From the NCBI GenBank assembly GCA_031271295.1, contig JAISVZ010000032.1, forward strand, positions 1,869 to 65,868: 64,000 nucleotides of DNA, read 5' to 3'. Below the pieces are notes generated by a model, which made no database searches, was not told the DNA's origin, and was given only the letters and a program-made list of their open reading frames with translations. The position numbers and the translations under genes are program-made. This DNA is from Clostridiales bacterium (GTDB lineage Bacteria > Bacillota > Clostridia > Lachnospirales > WQUN01). This document shows positions 5,959-56,374 of the stretch, piece by piece. Numbering within the stretch: position 1 is the first letter of the stretch; every line of letters starts with the position of its first letter.

Positions 5959-6103
5959 TTTACGAGAATTTTTATATTGCCAAATATTCTTGGGAAGCGT
6001 AATTATATCATCCTTGCAAGATAAGCGCCCTTTAGCAAGTGACAAGTACCGCAAACACTGAACAATATAAATATTTAGCTCTACTTCTATATGAACTCCT
6101 GGA

Positions 6104-6135
6104 ATAATTAGTGACATATATATGTCACTAATTAT
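6104..6135. repeat. perfect 32-bp AT-rich palindrome
   Basis: ATAATTAGTGACATATATATGTCACTAATTAT. All 16 position pairs checked as complementary. Lies between the two inverted structured elements. Confidence 0.9.
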
Positions 6136-6341
6136 CCCAAAATCCACACTTAATGCAATCTACATTTAAAAACTCTTAGCGCTGCATAACAGCTGAGAAA
6201 TTCAAATATGATATGCTTGATTAAACACGCAGGCAATAATTACGCCGTTTGCCTAATCTAATGAGTTGAATTTTATGTTACGGTACGCCTTTGTGCAAAC
6301 TTTACGTTGCCTGCAAAGGGTACACTTGATTACTGACGACT

Positions 6342-6615
6342 CCTTTCGCTTCCTGCAAAGAACATGCTGCCGGGCTTCGGCGCAGCTTATATTACACAGC
6401 ATAATTGTACCACGCGGCGGGGAAACAATTTTCGCCGTCAAAAAATAATCTCTGTGATACACTGGGGGCGAAAATTGGTTCACCAGAGCAGCGAGAAGAA
6501 TATTTTTGAGCGCACCCGCAAAAATAGAATCCTCTACAAACTTGGTGCGCTCAAAAATGTTCTGAAGCGTCAGGTGGCACATTGCTGTGCGATATAATTT
6601 GCGCCGAAGCCCTCC
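6342..6615. repeat. structured ~275-nt element, copy B (inverted relative to copy A)
   Basis: Its reverse complement aligns end to end with 5682-5958. Differences are concentrated in the predicted hairpin loops. Confidence 0.8.
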
Positions 6616-45688: not shown

Positions 45689-47818
45689 TTATTCCAGCGC
45701 GTTTTCAATTTCCTTCAGCCGCTCAATTGCCTCTCTCCACCGGGGAAGGTCGCTTTCGGATAAACCGTTCGGCCCTTCTTCGCCGTCCGGCAGGGAATCC
45801 ACCAATTCTCTAAGCCTTTTAATCAATTTCGCGTCGGTAGAAGTTAGCCCTGTGCCTCCGTTTTCTAAGCTGCGGTCGCCGTCGAAACGCCGTCCAACCA
45901 ACTGATCCTGCTCTAAATATCCTAACATATGCCGGATTTCCCACACCTTTGATATTTCTTCCGGCGCGGTAATATCTCCGAATGTCAGCGGGTCGTTGTA
46001 TGTGAAATTTACCCACGCAATAGAAATTTCCTGGTTCACATTTTCGGCTGTGGCTTCCGCGAGTTTTACGCTGAGGCTTTTTATTATTGGGTCGTCCATT
46101 GCGTAAATCCACTGCCTGTCGCCGTCGTAGCCAATTTGGAATACCACCTTATTATCGGGATAAAAATCCGCAAAGCGTTTGAATTCGCGCCCAAAACCGG
46201 CGGCGGCGCCCGCTTGCATCGTGTTCGAATCCCATTCGGCGGCAACCGAACCGTCCCACGAACCGGCGTTTTGGCTGTCGTTACAGAAAATCAGCTTTTC
46301 GCTCTTACCTTCCTCGCCGCCTCTGTATGTTAGCGGCAGATGCGTGCAGTTGTAGTGTTTTAGCAAAAGCCCAGCTTTCCCCTCGCCCCAGTTCCGGTAA
46401 AGGTACTCCGCCCACTGCTTTGCCCTGCCGTCCGAAACCGGAATACCTTGGTCGGAATCGATGCCGTAATACCACTCAACATCTACCGCAAAACCCAGTA
46501 CGCACTTGTGGTTTGCCACGTTGAAAACATCATAATAAATATCAATCAGCGTTTCCATATCCGCGAAACCGCTTTCAACCTGCAAATACACATAAATATC
46601 GTTCGTGTCGAAATAGGTTAAAAAATCCTCATGGGTTGCAGCATTTCCCGGCTGAGGCGTAAATTTTATGTGTTTTGCCCGCCATTCAAGTTCGCTTAAC
46701 GCCGGGTATTTGCTCTCGTCCGGCGTATACTTACCGCCGTCCGCTATGCTGTCAAAATCAACGTTTATAGTAATTCCGCCGTGCGCCGATTCAAGCATTC
46801 CGGTTATCCAAACAAATTCCGAACGCGCGTTCGGGAAATATTCCTTCATCCTCCTCGCAATTGCGCCGTACTGCTCCGGCGTAAGCCCGTCGCCCTGACG
46901 CCACGCGCGCCCGCCGGCGGATACTATGTTTGACGGTATTTCATCGTTTATACCCTCGGCCTTTTTAAGCTTTTCATAATTTAACACACGCGCTTTCGCG
47001 CCTTCGCTTAACGCGTTGTAGGCTTCCCTTGCATTAGCGACATCCTGCGCGGACGCGGAGTCCATTTCATCTATTACCGCCTCCGCCTCTTTCGCGTCGT
47101 CGTATTCTTCGCTTATTATGCCTGAATATGTACCCCATTCGTAGCCGGATATTTCGTTGTAATACTCACGCGCGGCAACCACCTGCGGAAGTTTTTTCTG
47201 CTCTGCGGTAAAGGCGGCAGGCCCGCCGTTCGCGCCGTTCGCGCCGTCCCCGTTATAGCTGAAATACGGCTTACCCCAGGAATCCCAAGCCCACAAGCCG
47301 CCGCCCGGCCCAAAGCTTCCGTTTTTGCCCGGCCCAACTTCTTTAAACACTGTGTAAATTTCCTCTATATCAAACGCCCATATCAGCGCTTCCGCCTTTT
47401 GCAGCTCCTTTAAAATTTCCTTGCCGTCCGCGCTCATTTGGTCTATGCCTTTAAGCTTCATAAACAGTTCACGCGCGTAAACAATTCTTTCCCTGTCCAT
47501 AACCGAGGTTGGCTCCGGCCTGAGGTACTCCTTTACCGTTTTAAAAGCGTCTTTTTGTTCGGGTTTTTCCGCCGCAGCAACAAGATCGGGCGTTTTGTCA
47601 AGCTCAGATTCGCTCTGCAAAGCCGTATCCGATACCTGTGAAGATTCTGACGCAGACGTTACATCCGCATAACTTGCATTAGACATATCCGTAATTCCTC
47701 CCGTCGTGTTTTGTGCGGAAACATCAATTTTTGCGCCTCCTGCTCCGTTACAGGCGGCAACCCCCAGCGCAAGCAGCACTAAAGATAAAAGCGACAGTGA
47801 TGAAACCAGTTTTTTCAT
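45689..47818 (-). CDS. large secreted lipoprotein, function unknown (possibly glycoside-hydrolase-like TIM barrel)
   Basis: 709 aa. AAGGAGGAG RBS. Lipobox LGVAAC. The central region ...VYLQVESGF...GFAVDVEWYYG... suggests a barrel enzyme, but I recognise no family. Confidence 0.6.
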   Translation of the reverse strand: MKKLVSSLSLLSLVLLALGVAACNGAGGAKIDVSAQNTTGGITDMSNASYADVTSASESSQVSDTALQSESELDKTPDLVAAAEKPEQKDAFKTVKEYLRPEPTSVMDRERIVYARELFMKLKGIDQMSADGKEILKELQKAEALIWAFDIEEIYTVFKEVGPGKNGSFGPGGGLWAWDSWGKPYFSYNGDGANGANGGPAAFTAEQKKLPQVVAAREYYNEISGYEWGTYSGIISEEYDDAKEAEAVIDEMDSASAQDVANAREAYNALSEGAKARVLNYEKLKKAEGINDEIPSNIVSAGGRAWRQGDGLTPEQYGAIARRMKEYFPNARSEFVWITGMLESAHGGITINVDFDSIADGGKYTPDESKYPALSELEWRAKHIKFTPQPGNAATHEDFLTYFDTNDIYVYLQVESGFADMETLIDIYYDVFNVANHKCVLGFAVDVEWYYGIDSDQGIPVSDGRAKQWAEYLYRNWGEGKAGLLLKHYNCTHLPLTYRGGEEGKSEKLIFCNDSQNAGSWDGSVAAEWDSNTMQAGAAAGFGREFKRFADFYPDNKVVFQIGYDGDRQWIYAMDDPIIKSLSVKLAEATAENVNQEISIAWVNFTYNDPLTFGDITAPEEISKVWEIRHMLGYLEQDQLVGRRFDGDRSLENGGTGLTSTDAKLIKRLRELVDSLPDGEEGPNGLSESDLPRWREAIERLKEIENALE

Positions 47819-48334
47819 GGGTTCTTTTCTCCTCCTTAAAAGTGTGTGTTTTGTGCATTTGATGCACTCTTGTGTGAAAAATTTAGTATTTGCCGGAATC
47901 GGTTTAATAGCTCTGCTCCGGATTATATTAAAGCTTTCTGTATCATATCATTTTTTGCCAATATCGTAAATGGTTTTTTGCTGAAATGAGCAAGGATTGT
48001 ACAAATCATGAAATAACGCCCATTCTTTTAAATACTGTGGGCGGGTTTGATGAAAAGCAACTTGGAAGGGAACCCATTGCCAACCGCGTTATAAATTTTT
48101 CTGTGGTCGATGTTGAATAGTTTATTAGAGTTCATAATGTTCTGTCAATGCTTCCCGAATTATTTCCTTATGTGTTCCTTCACAGAACTCAGACCATGTC
48201 CACAACGGTGTAAAGTCCACCGTTTCAATCAGTTCAAAATTTTCCCGTTAATACTTATCTATTCCCAAAAGACTATTAATTTCATTCACCCCAAAAAACT
48301 CGTCAAAAGTAACCGTAAATTTAACATCCGTGAT

Positions 48335-48946
48335 TTACCTGGCAATTTCAACCGTTCTGCCTATTTTTTTATACTCTTCATTATGTGTAACCAAAACAAC
48401 AGTTTTACCCGCTTCGTTAAGTTTAACTAAGTTATTAATTATTATTTCGGAATTATCTTTATCCAGCGAACCTGTAGGTTCATCCGCCAAAATGATATCA
48501 CAGCGTTTAATCATCAGCCTTGCCAAAGCTACTCTTTGCTGTTCTCCGCCGGATAGGGTATAAACCTTTGAACCATATGTGTCCATAATGCCAAGCTCCA
48601 AAAGGGCGTCCTTAATTTTTACGCCCGATCTGAACTCGGTTTTAACCATTTGCAGGTTTTCTAAAACGGTTTTGTTTTCAATCAGCGCGAAATTTTGAAA
48701 CAGAAAACCAACCTTGTTCCTGTAATAGTTAAGCAAATTCCGCTTTTTACTGATATTAATTCCGTCAACAACAATCTCGCCCCATTCGAACGGTTCCAAA
48801 GCGCCTATCATATTCAACAAAGTTGTTTTACCGCATCCGCTCGGACCTGTTAAAACTACAAACTCTCCAGTTGCTATTTCCAGATTAAAATTCGAAAACA
48901 ATATTCTGCCGCCAAATGATTTAGTTAAGTCGGTAATTTTTATCAA
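48335..48946 (-). CDS. ABC transporter ATP-binding protein, lactococcin-972-group exporter type
   Basis: 203 aa. Walker A GPSGCGKTT, signature LSGGEQQRVALAR, Walker B IILADEP. It is short and its start overlaps the upstream gene end. It follows a ~670-aa DUF1430-like membrane protein, as in lactococcin 972 loci. Confidence 0.75.
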   Translation of the reverse strand: MIKITDLTKSFGGRILFSNFNLEIATGEFVVLTGPSGCGKTTLLNMIGALEPFEWGEIVVDGINISKKRNLLNYYRNKVGFLFQNFALIENKTVLENLQMVKTEFRSGVKIKDALLELGIMDTYGSKVYTLSGGEQQRVALARLMIKRCDIILADEPTGSLDKDNSEIIINNLVKLNEAGKTVVLVTHNEEYKKIGRTVEIAR

Positions 48947-50955
48947 AGCGCTCCCCCCTTCAATATTTTTATGATACCTGTTTTTTCTTGATAACTCAAA
49001 AAACTTATGTTGAATGCGAAATCTGATAATGTAAATAATAAAGCCGCCAAAGCGCAGTATACAAATGAATACCCTAAAATGGCGGTTATCAAGAATAGGA
49101 CTATAGAAATAGCTAAATCCAGCAGTAAGAAAATTTGGAGCGACAACTTATTTCTTTGAAAAAGCGAATACCCCAAAGTTTTTTTAACCGCCGCTTCAAT
49201 GCCGTTTGCACGGTATCTCATTTTTGTTACAAGCACGGTTAGCGCAAAATTTATCAAGGACAAAAAAACGGCGTTTACCGCCGCGATAAGTGTTTTGTTT
49301 CGCTTTATCCGCATATTATCCTCGTATTTCCCCAATACATTGTATGTATAGATATTGTATTGGCTTATTACCCCGTTTTCCATAATAAACTTGCGGTATA
49401 AATCATCATTAACTCTATATGCAAAGTGCGAATGCCCGCCCATATTCATCATTTCCCCCGCAAACGCCTTTCCATATTCGGCCGGGTTAAAATTCATAAG
49501 AACCACAACGGGGTTTCTTGCCACCGTAAAATCATTGTTTAAACCCCCAAAAGACGGAAGCGTAACACTTTCGGTATAAACTTGCGTTTCATAATCGTAG
49601 CTGCCCGGTTCAAATGAAAGTTCCCTGTCTAAAATAAAAAACACGCTGTCCAATATATTCTCCGAATAATTTTCGGGAAGCAGAATTATAAACTCCGAAT
49701 CTTGCTGTATTCTTTCTAAATCCGGTATACGCTGCTCTAAAATATCGTACGCATGTAGGTTTGCCAGGAAAATGTTACGCGCCGGAAACGCGTTAAAAAG
49801 CACATAGGAATTAAATTCTTCATAAAATTCACGGTAAAACATGTCGCTCATCACACCCGCTTTTATAAAAGCATCCATAGGGTTAATTACTTTTCCCTGC
49901 TGCAGGGAAAAATCAATATGATAGTAATCCGAAAACTGCCGCGCATAGTTTCTTTCCAAAGACGCGCTGTAACTTTCGCTGAAGCTGTGCATAGCGTAAA
50001 GGGTTAATACTGCGGCAACTAAGCAAACAACCGCTTTAATCGAGTATCCCGCAATAACAGCACCTTTGCTGATTTTAACTTTGGAGAATATTTCTTTTAC
50101 TCCGGTTCGAAACGCAAAAAAATATGTGAGTATATTAAAAGCAATAACACACACAATGGTTAGAATTAAAAACGGCATATATGCCCCTACTAAGGTTATA
50201 ATCGAAAAGAACGAAAGTGCGGCACCGGATAGAACTATATAAATTGCCGAATCGGCAAGCACAGGTAAAACAACAACACGATTTATCCCATCGCCCAATG
50301 TAATGCGTACAAATGATTCTTTGCGCTTTAAAAGCACATCGTAAACGGAAAGCACTATATTTACAGCGCACACAATGAGAAACACCAAAAACAAATGTCT
50401 GTTTTCAGATTGCTTGCTGCTTTTTACAACCGATGCGTTTATATGCCTTCCCGGCATATTTATAAGCATATTTCTTTCAAAAGCCGCCGCGCTGCTGCCG
50501 CTTCCTATAACACGCAATGTCATTACGCTCGGCATATGCCCCAATTCGTCAAATGTCTTGTAATTAATAGACCTTTTTTCCCCGAATAACGATGAATAGC
50601 TGCCCTCCCATATGTATTCTTTTATCAGGTGGTTTTTTGCCTTCGTTGTTGCGTATATTGTTAACCCCACCTCGCCTTTTTCAAATACTGTTCGCTGCAC
50701 ATAAAAAACCTCAACGCCGCAATTTACGGATTCGCTCGCTATTTTCTGTGTTATTTGTGAAACAGAATGCCTATTATTCAACGCGTTTATTTCAAAAGTA
50801 TGATACGGTAAGCTGAAAGAACCCAACTTGGCGGCATGGTTTTCACCAATTTGAATTATAAGCATAATAAAAACAAGGAAAAACCCCGCAAACTTTATCA
50901 GTTTCAAAACCATCAACTCACTTAAACTATTTTTTAAGAGAATGTAACGCCCCAA
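48943..50955 (-). CDS. bacteriocin-associated integral membrane protein (DUF1430 / FtsX-like permease architecture)
   Basis: 670 aa. It has an N-terminal TM, an extracytoplasmic domain, a 4-TM block, a second large loop and a C-terminal TM block. Size and pairing with a ~200-aa ATPase match the lactococcin 972 immunity/export family, from memory. The start is ambiguous (TTG 50955 or ATG 50913). Confidence 0.65.
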   Translation of the reverse strand: MGRYILLKNSLSELMVLKLIKFAGFFLVFIMLIIQIGENHAAKLGSFSLPYHTFEINALNNRHSVSQITQKIASESVNCGVEVFYVQRTVFEKGEVGLTIYATTKAKNHLIKEYIWEGSYSSLFGEKRSINYKTFDELGHMPSVMTLRVIGSGSSAAAFERNMLINMPGRHINASVVKSSKQSENRHLFLVFLIVCAVNIVLSVYDVLLKRKESFVRITLGDGINRVVVLPVLADSAIYIVLSGAALSFFSIITLVGAYMPFLILTIVCVIAFNILTYFFAFRTGVKEIFSKVKISKGAVIAGYSIKAVVCLVAAVLTLYAMHSFSESYSASLERNYARQFSDYYHIDFSLQQGKVINPMDAFIKAGVMSDMFYREFYEEFNSYVLFNAFPARNIFLANLHAYDILEQRIPDLERIQQDSEFIILLPENYSENILDSVFFILDRELSFEPGSYDYETQVYTESVTLPSFGGLNNDFTVARNPVVVLMNFNPAEYGKAFAGEMMNMGGHSHFAYRVNDDLYRKFIMENGVISQYNIYTYNVLGKYEDNMRIKRNKTLIAAVNAVFLSLINFALTVLVTKMRYRANGIEAAVKKTLGYSLFQRNKLSLQIFLLLDLAISIVLFLITAILGYSFVYCALAALLFTLSDFAFNISFLSYQEKTGIIKILKGGAL

Positions 50956-51467
50956 TGCTCTTGCGCAACTTGAAATAATTCCTGAATTTCTGATTTGTAC
51001 TGTTCAAGCAGTTTTTTTGCCTCGTTTTCATCGAGATTTGTTCTTATTAAGTTTCCGTTTCTATCTATTTCTCCAACAGATTCACCGTATATACCATCTT
51101 CGGTTTCGGTAACATGGTTGAAGAGATAATGGTAATTGTCGTCATAATCGTTTGGCATTATAATAGTAATATGATGCGATGTACCAAGCCCGCGGCTGCG
51201 TTCTTCCATAAAACCAACATCCAAATTATACTCGTAACGAAGAAACTCCGGAAGAGCAATTAAAAACTTATATTTGTTATCCACAACAATGCTTGGAATT
51301 GAAACCTTTGCATCCGGAATTGATTCTTCATATCCTTCTAATACATATTTGTTATACACTTTATTGTAATGCAATTGCCACGGAATATAATTGTAACCGG
51401 CGAATCCAAGAAATAGAATTAAAAGTGCAAATAAAATGATAGCAACAGTTTTTTTCTTTGATTGCAT
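50934..51467 (-). CDS. single-pass membrane-anchored protein, unknown function
   Basis: The start is revised to the ATG at 51467 (GGGAGGG RBS). MQSKKKTVAIILFALLILFLGFAGY is a signal anchor, followed by a ~150-aa outside domain. Sits between the secreted peptide gene and the DUF1430 gene. Confidence 0.6.
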   Translation of the reverse strand: MQSKKKTVAIILFALLILFLGFAGYNYIPWQLHYNKVYNKYVLEGYEESIPDAKVSIPSIVVDNKYKFLIALPEFLRYEYNLDVGFMEERSRGLGTSHHITIIMPNDYDDNYHYLFNHVTETEDGIYGESVGEIDRNGNLIRTNLDENEAKKLLEQYKSEIQELFQVAQEHWGVTFS

Positions 51468-51567
51468 GACAAATCCCTCCCAAATATATAGCCGTCTAAG
51501 CACTAAATAATATAGCAAAAATTCAATCTTACCTATGTGTAATCATAGGTAAGATTGAATTTTAAGA

Positions 51568-51909
51568 TCAATCAACAGCAGTATGCAAAGCAGTTGGTGA
51601 CATATAGACCTTTAAATCTGCTCTTGCTCTTTTGTTCCTCGTTCCATGCGTAAAAACTGCGCCGCTTTCAGCAGTATAAACACCTGCAGTATGATCACGA
51701 GCAGTAGAAACGGATTCAGTATAGGCTATCATATCGAATCCGCTGAAAACATTAACGCCATAATAAATAGTAAGTGTTCCGTCTGTGAATATATGATGGT
51801 TAGTGTAATAGGTGTCGCTCTGTCCTTGTAAAACCGTTGCCGAAACCGTTGTTGCAAAACTCAAAACCATGGTTAAAAGCAGAACACTAATTATAAGTAT
51901 TTTTTTCAT
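51568..51909 (-). CDS. small secreted protein, candidate bacteriocin precursor
   Basis: The start is revised to the ATG at 51909 (AAAGGAGGTG RBS 7 nt upstream). Sec signal MKKILIISVLLLTMVLSFATTVSA, then an 89-aa mature part rich in T/H/G/Y. First gene of the cassette. Confidence 0.6.
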   Translation of the reverse strand: MKKILIISVLLLTMVLSFATTVSATVLQGQSDTYYTNHHIFTDGTLTIYYGVNVFSGFDMIAYTESVSTARDHTAGVYTAESGAVFTHGTRNKRARADLKVYMSPTALHTAVD

Positions 51910-52320
51910 AATATCACCTCCTTTATTTTTGTCAATGAAAAAATAAATAGCCAAATTGAATATTATGCAATGACAATACTCAACTTCATCATTTGTGCTA
52001 TAGTTATCAGCTTGATATCCGGAACAAAACTACAAGCAATACGCCAATGTTACAGACGTTTATCGATAATTTGCTATGAGTATTGATTTTTCAAGCCGCA
52101 CCATTCATCGTTAATTATGTATATTTTCATAAAGAGCTGATTAATTATCAAAGCTGTCTAAAAAAGCTATATATTTTTCCATGCTGGCAAGCCATTAACT
52201 TTTTTGCTTAAGATGAAAATTTAGTTATTTACCGTTAATTAAATTACTCAACATTTGTCCATAATAGTAAATCAAATTATTTTTTCTGTCAAGTTTTTAT
52301 TTTTTCCCATAAATACAACA

Positions 52321-52360
52321 AAAAACGAGCCATTAAAATTTTACATTGGCTCGTTTTTTA
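52321..52360. terminator. bidirectional rho-independent terminator
   Basis: AAAAACGAGCCA-(14 nt)-TGGCTCGTTTTTT, downstream of the 52413-52640 gene. Confidence 0.75.
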
Positions 52361-52412
52361 TTGTTTATAATAAAAAAACAATATAGTTTAGCTGATTGCT
52401 ACTAATCGTTAC

Positions 52413-52640
52413 CTATGCAACAAGTATCCAATCTCCAATCCACTGTCCGGTTGTAGAGTTATACAGTCTTTTATAATACTTTCCATTTTCTATTTTGAAT
52501 ACCCATTCAAAAATATCAGCAGAAGCAAGTGATTGCTGTTGAACAACCATCGAATAAATATCCATCATTGCATATACAGGCGAAACCGAAAGCATAAATA
52601 TCGCGATAATTACTAAGATAGCTCTTTTACATTTTTTCAT
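52413..52640 (-). CDS. small secreted protein (75 aa), unknown function
   Basis: Signal peptide MKKCKRAILVIIAIFMLSVSPVYA. 51-aa mature part ending NGKYYKRLYNSTTGQWIGDWILVA. The start overlaps the stop of the BlaR1-like gene (ATGA). Confidence 0.6.
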   Translation of the reverse strand: MKKCKRAILVIIAIFMLSVSPVYAMMDIYSMVVQQQSLASADIFEWVFKIENGKYYKRLYNSTTGQWIGDWILVA

Positions 52641-53806
52641 TTTACTTTCCTCCTAAATCTTCCATGATGATATACCGGTAAGTTTTTTAGCGATTCATCA
52701 ATATACGGCAATGTAAACAGCTCCGTACCATCATTTAAAAATGTGGTATACCTATCGTTGGAGTACTGCACTATGTAAGCATTATTTTCATTTATCGAAA
52801 ATAATATCTCCCCTTCTTGCGCATCATCAATATATGAATGATGTGATTGAACAACAACTAAAAAAGATGCGATAATTAACACGACTGTTATAAAAATACA
52901 GATTATTTTCGACTTATAAAACTTTTTGTTCTTGTCATACTCCAAACCAAAATGTATTCGTTTCTCAATATTGCTTAATCGTTTAGTTTCATAATTATTT
53001 GCAAAATTGAGTTGTAAAGGTGTGCTAATTATCTGCTTTCTCTTTTTTGATTCTTCTAAAATAAATTTCAAATATTCTATTCTATCATGTTCGTTAAGCA
53101 ACTCTATGACAGAAAAATCCGCTCGACATTCCATTATATTTGCAAATGCCTTTTTTAACTCTACAATAACAAAATAATTCCACCAATATACTATACATAT
53201 TACTTCCAAAATTAACTTTACCCACAAATCTTTTTTGAGAAAATGAATCAATTCATGGCAGAGTATGAAGCTTAGTTCCTCTTCCGTATATTCCTCATCC
53301 GGAATGATAATTACAGGTTTTATTAACCCGAAAATAACAGGAGCTCCCATAGAATTTGACTTTATAATCTTAAGATTATCCGGTATTTTTATGTTGTAAA
53401 ATTTTAAACAGATGTCCGAGTACTCCCTTGTTCTATCTCTTTTTTTACTGAATAATTTAGTCGTTGTTCTCAGTTTTATGTACCTTAGCACATTCTTGCA
53501 AGCTTTAAATGCACCTCCTAAAATCCAAACCGTTATAAGCAAATGTAAAACTGTAAATTTTCCAAAAAAATAATTCTCGTGTATATACATATTGAAAAAC
53601 GGTAAAACTTTAGATGATAAAATAGGTTTTGTAAACGGAAGCTCAAACGGCAATGCAAGCCGTAAAACAACAAGCGATAAAATTAAAAGCAGAGTTGTTA
53701 CTCCTATTGATTGAAAAGCTTTCTTATTATTTGTTAATTTGGATACCGCCAATATTATGATACCGCTACTAATAACACCGTTTACTATTGCGGGTATTGT
53801 AAGCAT
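52637..53806 (-). CDS. M56-family (BlaR1/MecR1-like) membrane metalloprotease/signal transducer without penicillin-binding sensor domain
   Basis: 389 aa. 4 N-terminal TM segments. Zinc motif CHELIHFLKKD. One further TM and a ~70-aa C-terminal outside domain, in place of a PBP-like sensor. Confidence 0.8.
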   Translation of the reverse strand: MLTIPAIVNGVISSGIIILAVSKLTNNKKAFQSIGVTTLLLILSLVVLRLALPFELPFTKPILSSKVLPFFNMYIHENYFFGKFTVLHLLITVWILGGAFKACKNVLRYIKLRTTTKLFSKKRDRTREYSDICLKFYNIKIPDNLKIIKSNSMGAPVIFGLIKPVIIIPDEEYTEEELSFILCHELIHFLKKDLWVKLILEVICIVYWWNYFVIVELKKAFANIMECRADFSVIELLNEHDRIEYLKFILEESKKRKQIISTPLQLNFANNYETKRLSNIEKRIHFGLEYDKNKKFYKSKIICIFITVVLIIASFLVVVQSHHSYIDDAQEGEILFSINENNAYIVQYSNDRYTTFLNDGTELFTLPYIDESLKNLPVYHHGRFRRKVK

Positions 53807-53846
53807 ATAATTTCACCCCTAATGCAGTAAAACGCCCTTACTTTTA

Positions 53847-54266
53847 CTATAACTTTGCTCTTCGCTCAGCCAACAATTTTTCCAATGCATTTATTGTGTC
53901 CTCTTCGTTTTCATCATAATCCAAAAATGAAGCAACAATATTAGAGGTTAGAGTTTTATTTTTTGAAGGAAAATGGTGATTTACATACATTATCGCATAT
54001 TCCTCGTCTGAAATATGGGCGATATATTCGCGAGCCGTAGTTTTTTGCACTCTCTTATACGACGCAACTTCAATTGCTCCCTTATTTAAAAGAGATTTAA
54101 GCATATTTTGCACTGTAAAAATATTGTTCTTTTTATCTGTGAAGCCGTTGGCGATTAATTCGCTTTCAATATCAGTCGCCGTTTTAGGCGTATCCGAATT
54201 CCAAAACACTCTCATTACTTCAAGCTCGCGGTTTGTAAGTTTAAAAAAATTGATATCCTTTTTCAT
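53847..54266 (-). CDS. BlaI/MecI/CopY-family transcriptional repressor
   Basis: The start is revised to the ATG at 54266 (GGGAGG RBS). LTNRELEVMRVFWNSDTPKTATDI...TVQNMLKSLLNKGAI...REYIAHISDEEY follows the BlaI winged-helix pattern. Confidence 0.85.
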   Translation of the reverse strand: MKKDINFFKLTNRELEVMRVFWNSDTPKTATDIESELIANGFTDKKNNIFTVQNMLKSLLNKGAIEVASYKRVQKTTAREYIAHISDEEYAIMYVNHHFPSKNKTLTSNIVASFLDYDENEEDTINALEKLLAERRAKL

Positions 54267-54319
54267 AGAAACCTCCCTTTTAATAAGCGATAACATATAA
54301 ATAAAGAGCCTACAGCTTT

Positions 54320-54348
54320 ATTTTATTTCACATTAAGATAAATGTCAA
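54320..54348 (-). promoter_or_regulatory. sigma-A type promoter of the blaI/blaR1-like operon
   Basis: On the minus strand: TTGACA (54348-54343), 17-nt spacer, TAAAAT (54325-54320), about 50 nt upstream of the ATG. Confidence 0.55.
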
Positions 54349-54495
54349 CGATGAATTTTTTATCTTATTCGATTTATTGGTATAACGGGTCAATCCGTAA
54401 ACGTAAAATTATAAAAGAGATATATCTGTATAAAAAGCCAATCAGAAAGCCATTGCTACATGTTCTTTCAAGATCAAAATTAGTTTTTTTAATCA

Positions 54496-54524
54496 TTGAC
54501 AAATTACATCAACAGTAGTAAAGT
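54496..54524 (+). promoter_or_regulatory. sigma-A type promoter of the stalk-domain protein gene
   Basis: TTGACA (54496-54501), 17-nt spacer, TAAAGT (54519-54524). Confidence 0.45.
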
Positions 54525-54572
54525 AATATCGAACGAGAAGATGTGGTTATGAAAACAGAAAGAAGGTGCCGT

Positions 54573-55790: not shown

Positions 55791-55837
55791 AAACCGGCTG
55801 CGCCGAAGCTTAAACATAGCTTCGGCGCAGCCGGTTT
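55791..55837. terminator. 20-bp-arm hairpin between convergent genes (T-run on minus strand)
   Basis: AAACCGGCTGCGCCGAAGCT-taaacat-AGCTTCGGCGCAGCCGGTTT, preceded by an A7 run. Confidence 0.75.
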
Positions 55838-55888
55838 ACTTCTCCTATTTCTTAATTTCTTAGCTTTGGCGCAACCGGTTAACCGCGC

Positions 55889-56374
55889 CTATTTCTTAAT
55901 ATTTTTGATAAAACTTAGCGGGTTTTTCTTTTCGGGCACATCGCCTTTTTTTGCCGCTTCTTTTGCCTTTCGCTCTTCCTTCATTTGCTTTTCGGATTTC
56001 ATTCCCGGCATATCCACTATGTAAATGCCCGCCAACCCGACCTTTACGCTTTTTCTAACCGGCAGAACCTCGAACACCTTTTTATCGCACATAAGAGTCA
56101 TAATTTGTGCGCCGATTTTTGCCTGCACAAAGTACATCTTCATAAGCTTTGCCGTTTTCGGCATTTGCTCCATTGCGGCTTTTGGCAGGTTAACGTTTGT
56201 TACCTTATCCCTTTTCTTGTCGATTACAAAAATATTTACCACCGTTCTTGTTTTAGATATTAAGCTTTGCTGCTGATCCATCTTTTTCATTGCCCACTTG
56301 TTTAAAAAGTAAAGCCCCGTTCCAAGCGCGGCTACTATTAAAAACACAAGAAACACAATATCCATTGGCCCCAT
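55889..56374 (-). CDS. hypothetical single-TM protein with K/E-rich tail
   Basis: 161 aa. GGAGGG RBS. N-terminal TM IVFLVFLIVAALGTGLYFL. No recognised motifs. Confidence 0.55.
   Translation of the reverse strand: MGPMDIVFLVFLIVAALGTGLYFLNKWAMKKMDQQQSLISKTRTVVNIFVIDKKRDKVTNVNLPKAAMEQMPKTAKLMKMYFVQAKIGAQIMTLMCDKKVFEVLPVRKSVKVGLAGIYIVDMPGMKSEKQMKEERKAKEAAKKGDVPEKKNPLSFIKNIKK

Follow-up and report, generated by a model that had tools for sequence, protein, structure and literature searches.

Does a short run of genes in the genome of a Clostridiales bacterium encode a bacteriocin together with the means of surviving it? The genes in question (48335-51909) lie on the minus strand of the window, by which we mean the whole 64,000-nucleotide (nt) stretch of contig JAISVZ010000032.1 (assembly GCA_031271295.1) that was analysed. 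Lactococcin 972-type bacteriocins are unmodified and exported by the Sec pathway; lactococcin 972 itself targets lipid II, and its operon in Lactococcus lactis comprises lcn972, a TIGR01654 membrane protein and a TIGR03608 ATPase. A related cluster, that of mediterrocin in Mediterraneibacter gnavus, consists of mdcF (toxin), mdcG (encoding a protein with a predicted signal peptide), mdcH (DUF1430) and mdcI (ATP-binding cassette [ABC] protein); the 114-amino acid (aa) precursor has a 25-aa signal and an 89-aa mature part, and mediterrocin shapes competition among human gut Clostridia (PMC12345188). An earlier reading of the letters of the window (below, the sequence-only reading) had proposed a lactococcin 972-type cassette of four minus-strand genes, encoding proteins of 113, 177, 670 and 203 aa. 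Open reading frame (ORF) analysis recovered all four, co-directional and in this order. We favour, with a probability of about 0.68, the explanation that they form a self-contained cassette of the lactococcin 972/mediterrocin type that was acquired horizontally and encodes both a bacteriocin and immunity to it. The cassette thus appears to be of a known kind, and what appears new in it is a highly divergent predicted toxin and an orphan accessory protein.

Transporter pair and related loci

In the ABC ATPase encoded by the last gene of the cassette, the Walker A, signature, Walker B and H-loop motifs are all intact. Its best family is TIGR03608 (L_ocin_972_ABC), with 220.8 bits versus 159.5 for FtsE (a 61-bit lead), and it is 52% identical to the ATPase adjoining the mediterrocin gene of a locus in another genome of the phylum (locus L026, genome G434). 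The TTG start codon of the ATPase gene overlaps the TGA stop codon of the membrane-protein gene as TTGA, with GAAGGGGGGAG upstream (read directly), and the ATPase appears to be translationally coupled to the membrane protein through this overlap.

The membrane protein had been read as 670 aa in length. A polytopic product of this size is indeed encoded by the maximal ORF (48943-50955, TTG start), but its probable length is 656 aa: every homologue aligns only from residue 16-18 of the 670-aa frame, so that the ATG at 50913 is the likelier start. With this start, the gene no longer overlaps that of the 177-aa protein. The hydropathy profile runs from a transmembrane (TM) segment through a loop of approximately 145 residues, a TM bundle, a loop of approximately 225 residues and a second TM bundle, such that the protein is made of two repeats of a large outer domain plus a transmembrane bundle. 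Conserved motifs precede both bundles (KE-x-x-VRITLG the first and E-x-A-[VL]-KK-x-LGYS the second).

Searches with the hidden Markov models (HMMs) DUF1430 and TIGR01654, suggested by the sequence-only reading as a check, both matched the C-terminus of this protein, though below their cut-offs (discussed below). When 401 genomes of the phylum were surveyed with TIGR01654, canonical loci were recovered and, in addition, a clade in which 660-aa proteins are paired with 202-aa ATPases (genomes G434 and G646). The membrane protein aligns with these 660-aa proteins at 113 bits, residues 18-669 (670-aa numbering) against 2-659, and they themselves pass the DUF1430 (PF07242) threshold with 30.6 bits. 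In 656-aa numbering, residues 3-656 align with residues 1-660 of the 660-aa protein at a mediterrocin locus with 25% identity. Two alignments were compared with canonical TIGR01654 proteins using hhalign: a wider one (A4), which matched eight canonical proteins with 99.0% probability over 592 columns, and one of the membrane protein with its 45%-identical relative (A2), which matched with 96.5% probability over the C-terminal 95 columns. Two of the eight canonical proteins (L009 and L013) follow GGGLWDYG-type lactococcin 972-like peptides. By these comparisons, the membrane protein is a full-length homologue of the DUF1430/TIGR01654 superfamily and a predicted permease or immunity subunit. The lactococcin 972-type transporter pair of the sequence-only reading is therefore upheld, TIGR03608 being the best family of the ATPase and the membrane protein being homologous to DUF1430 proteins that stand beside mediterrocin and lactococcin 972-like genes.

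Close relatives of the permease are few. A word-indexed search retrieved one, P0003 (45% identical, truncated), from a contig of 1961 bp (L001) that is too short for wider gene context. On that contig the order of the pair is ATPase gene first and permease gene second, and the permease reading frame ends at residue 574, ahead of the DUF1430 part. A profile search of genomes with the permease alignment found no related locus, and a broader one retrieved, from metagenomes, mediterrocin-type loci only.

Related loci vary in what precedes the pair. At L026, the pair follows a 126-aa protein with a Sec signal that is a clear member of the mediterrocin family (103.1 bits on model NF052268, cut-off 40); this peptide served as the positive control for the model. 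L027 (G646) and two metagenome loci, L035 and L036, retain just a C-terminal remnant of the mediterrocin gene, beside intact permease and ATPase genes. The remnant reads ...SDLEVQHSGNTVNYYS..., of which L036 keeps just ...TVNYYSIEY. These three loci look like orphan immunity pairs, and a toxin remnant beside an intact pair is what one would expect of a pair that confers immunity. A second locus of G646 (L028) has two Sec-secreted, Ser/Thr-rich proteins (138 and 141 aa) and a 149-aa signal-anchored protein upstream of a 660-aa/202-aa pair. The small proteins of L028 matched no Pfam family at E<=0.01 and, among NCBIfam models, gave one noise match (11.7 bits, 138-aa protein); the secreted proteins may represent a further type of toxin carried on this chassis. 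At L029 (G721), a 130-aa protein with a Sec signal and no family match (6037-6429) precedes three others: a TIGR01654-like protein of 725 aa, an ATPase of 219 aa and an anchored protein of 332 aa. This 130-aa protein is probably another unrecognised secreted partner.

Secreted protein and 177-aa companion

The precursor gene has the strongest ribosome-binding site (RBS) in the cassette, AAAGGAGGTG, located 7 nt upstream of its ATG. Its signal peptide, MKKILIISVLLLTMVLSFATTVSA, followed by TVLQ, has a KK n-region, a hydrophobic core and V-S-A at positions -3 to -1. This typical n/h/c layout agrees with the Sec signal cut after TVSA, and the 89-aa mature part, that had been read from the sequence, and the hydropathy profile of the precursor shows a single N-terminal hydrophobic segment. 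The mature protein has a mass of approximately 9.8 kDa, an isoelectric point (pI) of 6.1 and no Cys. Scans of the neighbouring genes with Pfam and NCBIfam gave no modification-enzyme family. With a Sec-type signal on a small, apparently unmodified precursor and no double-glycine leader, the protein has the predicted features of the lactococcin 972/mediterrocin type.

Relatives of the precursor are rare as well. A word-indexed homologue search retrieved the precursor alone, and HMMER, run against 1.84 billion cluster representatives, gave one true relative: P0007 (E 1e-7, 39% identity), a 121-aa metagenomic protein from a 506-bp contig (L002) that is too short for gene context. Three long repeat proteins (WD40 and others) in the HMMER list were rejected as matches driven by low complexity or repeats. 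GTLT[IL]YYG and TARDHTAGVY are common to the precursor and P0007. On the mediterrocin model NF052268, P0007 scores 34.4 bits over its full length (cut-off 40) and 21.4 bits (E 2e-4) with its mature part alone; on TIGR01653 it scores 24.2 bits (cut-off 32.1). The precursor itself gave no match to NF052268. In an hhalign comparison, the precursor and P0007 together matched mediterrocins with 46.5% probability (E 2e-4) over a 35-column core, L-x-YG-[FV]-[NS]...AY...H-x-A-x-[VI]...SG, and the joint alignment is near gap-free through to the C-terminus (one single-residue gap).

Judged by the models, the peptide falls outside both curated families (TIGR01653 and NF052268). Because P0007, its one relative, scores on both bacteriocin models, the peptide is most likely a very divergent branch of the lactococcin 972/mediterrocin superfamily. 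Its position, its Sec signal and a mature length equal to that of mediterrocin add contextual support. The suggestion that the secreted product belongs to a new bacteriocin-like family thus stands in part: the peptide is unlike lactococcin 972 (15.7 bits on TIGR01653) and matches no known non-bacteriocin family, but it is probably not wholly new, given the links through P0007 below the cut-offs. Searches of PDB sequences with the peptide and its profile gave nothing meaningful, a profile search of genomes and metagenomes with the peptide alignment found no related locus, and a scan of 300 genomes from the class to which the window belongs yielded no true NF052268 member.

In the 177-aa protein, a single hydrophobic segment at the N-terminus, either a signal anchor or a cleavable signal, precedes an acidic outer part of 142 aa (pI 4.7). 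The protein matched no Pfam or NCBIfam family, retrieved nothing besides itself from a 5.8-billion-sequence index (word-indexed search) and lacked a homologue across 400 genomes of the phylum. Two mediterrocin-type loci, L028 and L039, have a signal-anchored protein of approximately 148 aa directly before the permease gene, to which the 177-aa protein has no similarity (hhalign 0.2%). The sequence-only reading had called this protein an extra component. It is indeed an orphan in sequence, but its position and topology are precedented, since mdcG of the published mediterrocin cluster and the anchored proteins of L028 and L039 occupy the same slot. We consider it a putative orphan accessory protein in the mdcG position, the likeness being one of position and topology.

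Genomic setting and competing explanations

The cassette is compositionally foreign. As noted from the sequence, it is AT-rich (37.6% G+C compared to 47–51% in the flanks), which places it at the 5th percentile among equal-sized windows of a genome whose mean windowed G+C is 43.9%. The AT-rich islet is larger than first drawn: it extends from 47819 to 54542 (34.8% G+C, 0.7th percentile of genome windows) and includes an operon on the same strand (52413-54296, minus, 31.7% G+C) that encodes a BlaI-like repressor, a BlaR1-like protease and a 75-aa secreted protein. The islet borders lack flanking direct repeats, tRNA genes and an integrase. The permease and cassette are absent from all 40 related genomes examined, and a flanking 709-aa gene has no homologue in 25 related genomes; no empty insertion site is demonstrable because the related genomes lack both the cassette and this gene. 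The 709-aa protein (45689-47818, minus) has an N-terminal signal sequence with a Cys (lipoprotein-like), a G+C content of 50.7% and no Pfam or NCBIfam family. A protein-like frame continues past the stop codon of the ATPase gene (48125-48334, minus), reading ITDVKFTVTFDEFFGVNEINSLLGIDKY, one internal stop and RENFELIETVDFTPLWTWSEFCEGTHKEIIREALTEHYEL; it has no start codon and no match in a Pfam search, and is probably a decayed gene. Outside the islet, the interval between genes for 409-aa and 161-aa proteins contains a perfect, G+C-rich hairpin of 20 bp (55791-55837) and a tandem direct repeat of 40 nt (55817-55900).

Coordinates of the cassette, its signals and the related genes are given in Table 1. 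A TTGACA-17-TACTAT site approximately 350 nt before the precursor ATG is the candidate cassette promoter, and other, weaker promoter-like sites are nearer to the precursor gene. Directly 3' of the precursor stop codon, ahead of the three downstream genes, is a perfect hairpin with a U run that looks like a terminator or attenuator.

From this arrangement we infer antimicrobial activity, its target, immunity and attenuation as follows. The precursor would be exported via the general Sec pathway and cut after TVSA. The released 89-aa protein, Cys-free and predicted to be unmodified and beta-rich, may act on the envelope of competing Firmicutes and, by analogy with lactococcin 972, its target may be lipid II or septal wall synthesis. 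The strong hairpin after the toxin gene would end most transcripts and leave less of the three downstream genes, a partial terminator that would set a high toxin-to-immunity transcript ratio. Going by family context, the DUF1430-type double-module protein and its coupled ATPase would form an FtsX/MacB-like ABC machine that shields the producer by clearing the toxin from the membrane or from its target; the conserved permease motifs and the clan shared by DUF1430 and FtsX would suit mechanotransmission of the MacB/BceB kind. The 177-aa protein in the mdcG slot would be accessory, possibly a toxin-specific immunity or chaperone factor.

Several results weigh against a bacteriocin-plus-immunity cassette. 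The full precursor reaches just 15.7 bits (E 0.013) on TIGR01653, below the cut-off of 32.1, and the mature 89-aa part alone matches neither TIGR01653 nor any other model. Pairwise BLAST of the precursor to a mediterrocin was not significant, and a custom HMM of three mediterrocin sequences separated neither the precursor nor P0007 from genome decoys. AlphaFold2 models of the peptide are of low confidence, with predicted local distance difference test (pLDDT) scores of 37.2 (single sequence) and 49.5 (7-sequence alignment). The latter model is all-beta with six strands, at that low confidence; a Foldseek search of the PDB gave nothing at E<=0.001, and 2LGN (the structure of lactococcin 972, a small beta-sandwich) was absent from the 50 best listed matches. 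The membrane protein stays below the cut-offs of both DUF1430 (20.6 bits, E 5.5e-4, residues 568-667; cut-off 28.2) and TIGR01654 (20.1 bits, C-terminal part only; cut-off 189.35). The ATPase is likewise below that of TIGR03608 (254.85 bits), as is the mediterrocin-linked ATPase of L026 (236.5 bits). In addition, the source genome is metagenome-assembled (220 contigs, 3.69 Mb, 93.8% complete) with 4.4% contamination.

Pairs whose toxin gene is decayed or absent are common among the relatives (L027, L035, L036 and L034). The cassette could similarly be an orphan immunity or resistance pair directed against a neighbour's lactococcin 972/mediterrocin-type toxin, with the 113-aa and 177-aa products being ordinary, non-toxic secreted or surface proteins; the failure of the peptide on both curated bacteriocin models, the low-confidence structure models and the lack of 2LGN among the 50 best listed matches all agree with this. 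Unlike the toxin gene of L027, L035 and L036, however, the gene in the toxin position is intact and well equipped for translation: it has the strongest RBS and occupies the exact toxin slot of mediterrocin and lactococcin 972-type loci. Its product matches mediterrocin in size and Sec signal, and P0007, its sole relative, scores best on bacteriocin models. We therefore consider an orphan pair unlikely.

The shared islet and strand raise another alternative, in which the role of the cassette is to export or process its two small proteins for something other than antagonism (such as cell-wall remodelling or signalling) and the BlaI/BlaR1-like pair, with its sensor-less protease and the 75-aa secreted protein, acts as the sensing arm. 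The two units are separated by a strong terminator (52318-52364), and repeat and TACAnnTGTA scans found no operator shared between them; the BlaI/CopY-type TACAnnTGTA operator does not occur in the window. Nor is the link to BlaI/BlaR1 conserved, since the transporter pairs of relatives adjoin varied regulators (a LuxR-type regulator, an extracytoplasmic function [ECF] sigma factor) or none. This alternative seems quite improbable to us.

We give very little credence to a BceAB-like module that senses and removes host or foreign antimicrobial peptides under two-component control with no self-made toxin: DUF1430 and FtsX are placed in one Pfam clan (PMC6588880) and the two conserved motifs of the permease resemble FtsX-domain motifs (our own reading), but the membrane protein has no FtsX (PF02687) match at E<=0.1 and no BceB family match, the scanned ORFs adjoining the cassette include no kinase or response-regulator family (a 161-aa ORF at 55889-56374 has no family at all), and the closest permease and ATPase homologues are linked to mediterrocin genes. 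The BceB-type permease with a nearby BceRS that the sequence-only reading had allowed for was accordingly not found.

The bacteriocin-plus-immunity cassette remains our preferred explanation. A bolder form of it, in which the 89-aa protein and P0007 are a new, extremely rare toxin family of lactococcin 972 fold and the orphan 177-aa protein decides immunity specificity in place of the DUF1430/ABC pump, is tentative and, in our view, doubtful. If true, this cassette type would serve as a general chassis that can take up different, unrelated secreted toxins, each with its cognate small immunity protein. The preferred explanation would already make the cassette an example of a toxin that has diverged widely beside a transporter and a gene order that remain recognisable. 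Genome mining with toxin models would probably miss the cassette, as both curated models are blind to its predicted toxin, whereas a search for the DUF1430/TIGR03608 pair followed by reading of the upstream Sec-signal ORF would recover it. The 177-aa protein would also be a second example, unrelated in sequence to the L028 and L039 proteins, of a small protein with a signal whose gene separates those of the toxin and the permease.

Table 1. Positions of the cassette genes, nearby signals and operon, and selected genes at related loci
Feature	Sequence	Position	Strand	Details
Precursor gene	window	51568-51909	-	113 aa; ORF, strong RBS
Sec signal peptide, residues 1-24	window	51838-51909	-	n/h/c layout
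Mature 89-aa protein, predicted bacteriocin	window	51571-51837	-	
Perfect 20-bp hairpin + U run	window	51518-51563	-	inverted repeat I4, 100% complementary; -25.7 kcal/mol, z -8.55
177-aa protein gene	window	50934-51467	-	ORF; GGGAGGG before ATG (RBS)
Polytopic membrane protein, DUF1430/TIGR01654 type	window	48943-50913	-	656 aa from ATG 50913
ABC ATPase gene	window	48335-48946	-	203 aa; TTG start
Promoter-like site TTGACA-17-TACTAT	window	52264-52292	-	consensus scan; first after upstream terminator
Intrinsic terminator of BlaI/BlaR1-like/75-aa operon	window	52318-52364	-	hairpin -25.1 kcal/mol, z -9.4, U run
75-aa secreted protein	window	52413-52640	-	
BlaR1-like M56 protease without penicillin-binding sensor domain	window	52637-53806	-	389 aa; Pfam Peptidase_M56
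BlaI-like repressor	window	53847-54296	-	Pfam Penicillinase_R
Mediterrocin remnant	L027	7660-8100		upstream of intact 660-aa/202-aa pair
Mediterrocin remnant	L035	230-496		upstream of intact 660-aa/202-aa pair
Mediterrocin remnant	L036	322-510		upstream of intact 660-aa/202-aa pair
Small-protein genes	L028	161-577, 4447-4872, 5074-5523		

Comparison with known systems

Like BceAB, the cassette combines a large double-module permease of an FtsX-related clan (PMC6588880) with a small ATPase, and both systems probably remove a peptide from the membrane instead of performing classical export. Unlike BceAB, it has no FtsX Pfam match and no adjacent BceRS-type two-component system, and a toxin-like gene is located directly upstream.

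The likeness to the lactococcin 972 operon is closer. Both begin with a small, Sec-secreted and apparently unmodified protein, after which come a large polytopic protein and an ABC ATPase of approximately 200 aa; TIGR03608 is the best family of the ATPase, and homology to TIGR01654/DUF1430 is supported by hhalign probabilities of 96.5–99%. The differences are that the peptide lacks the GGxWxYG N-terminal motif of the L009 and L013 peptides (TIGR01653, 15.7 bits) and any similarity to 2LGN in sequence or low-confidence-model searches, that the membrane protein is approximately 80 residues shorter than the canonical members (725–776 aa), and that the cassette has the additional 177-aa gene.

With respect to mediterrocin, the peptide misses NF052268 altogether, and only P0007 scores (34.4 bits, cut-off 40). 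No similarity is detectable between the 177-aa protein and its anchored counterparts at the mediterrocin-type loci L028 and L039, and the cassette differs from mediterrocin loci in having no mobile-element genes and a neighbouring regulator of another type. The two systems share one gene order, Sec precursor, signal-peptide protein, DUF1430 seven-TM protein and ABC ATPase, with precursor and mature lengths of 113 and 89 aa here and 114 and 89 aa in mediterrocin. At L026, the pair beside the mediterrocin-family gene (103 bits) is 52% (ATPase) and 25% (membrane protein) identical to that of the cassette, and the permease and ATPase genes overlap in both (TTGA here, and 4 nt by coordinates in L026).

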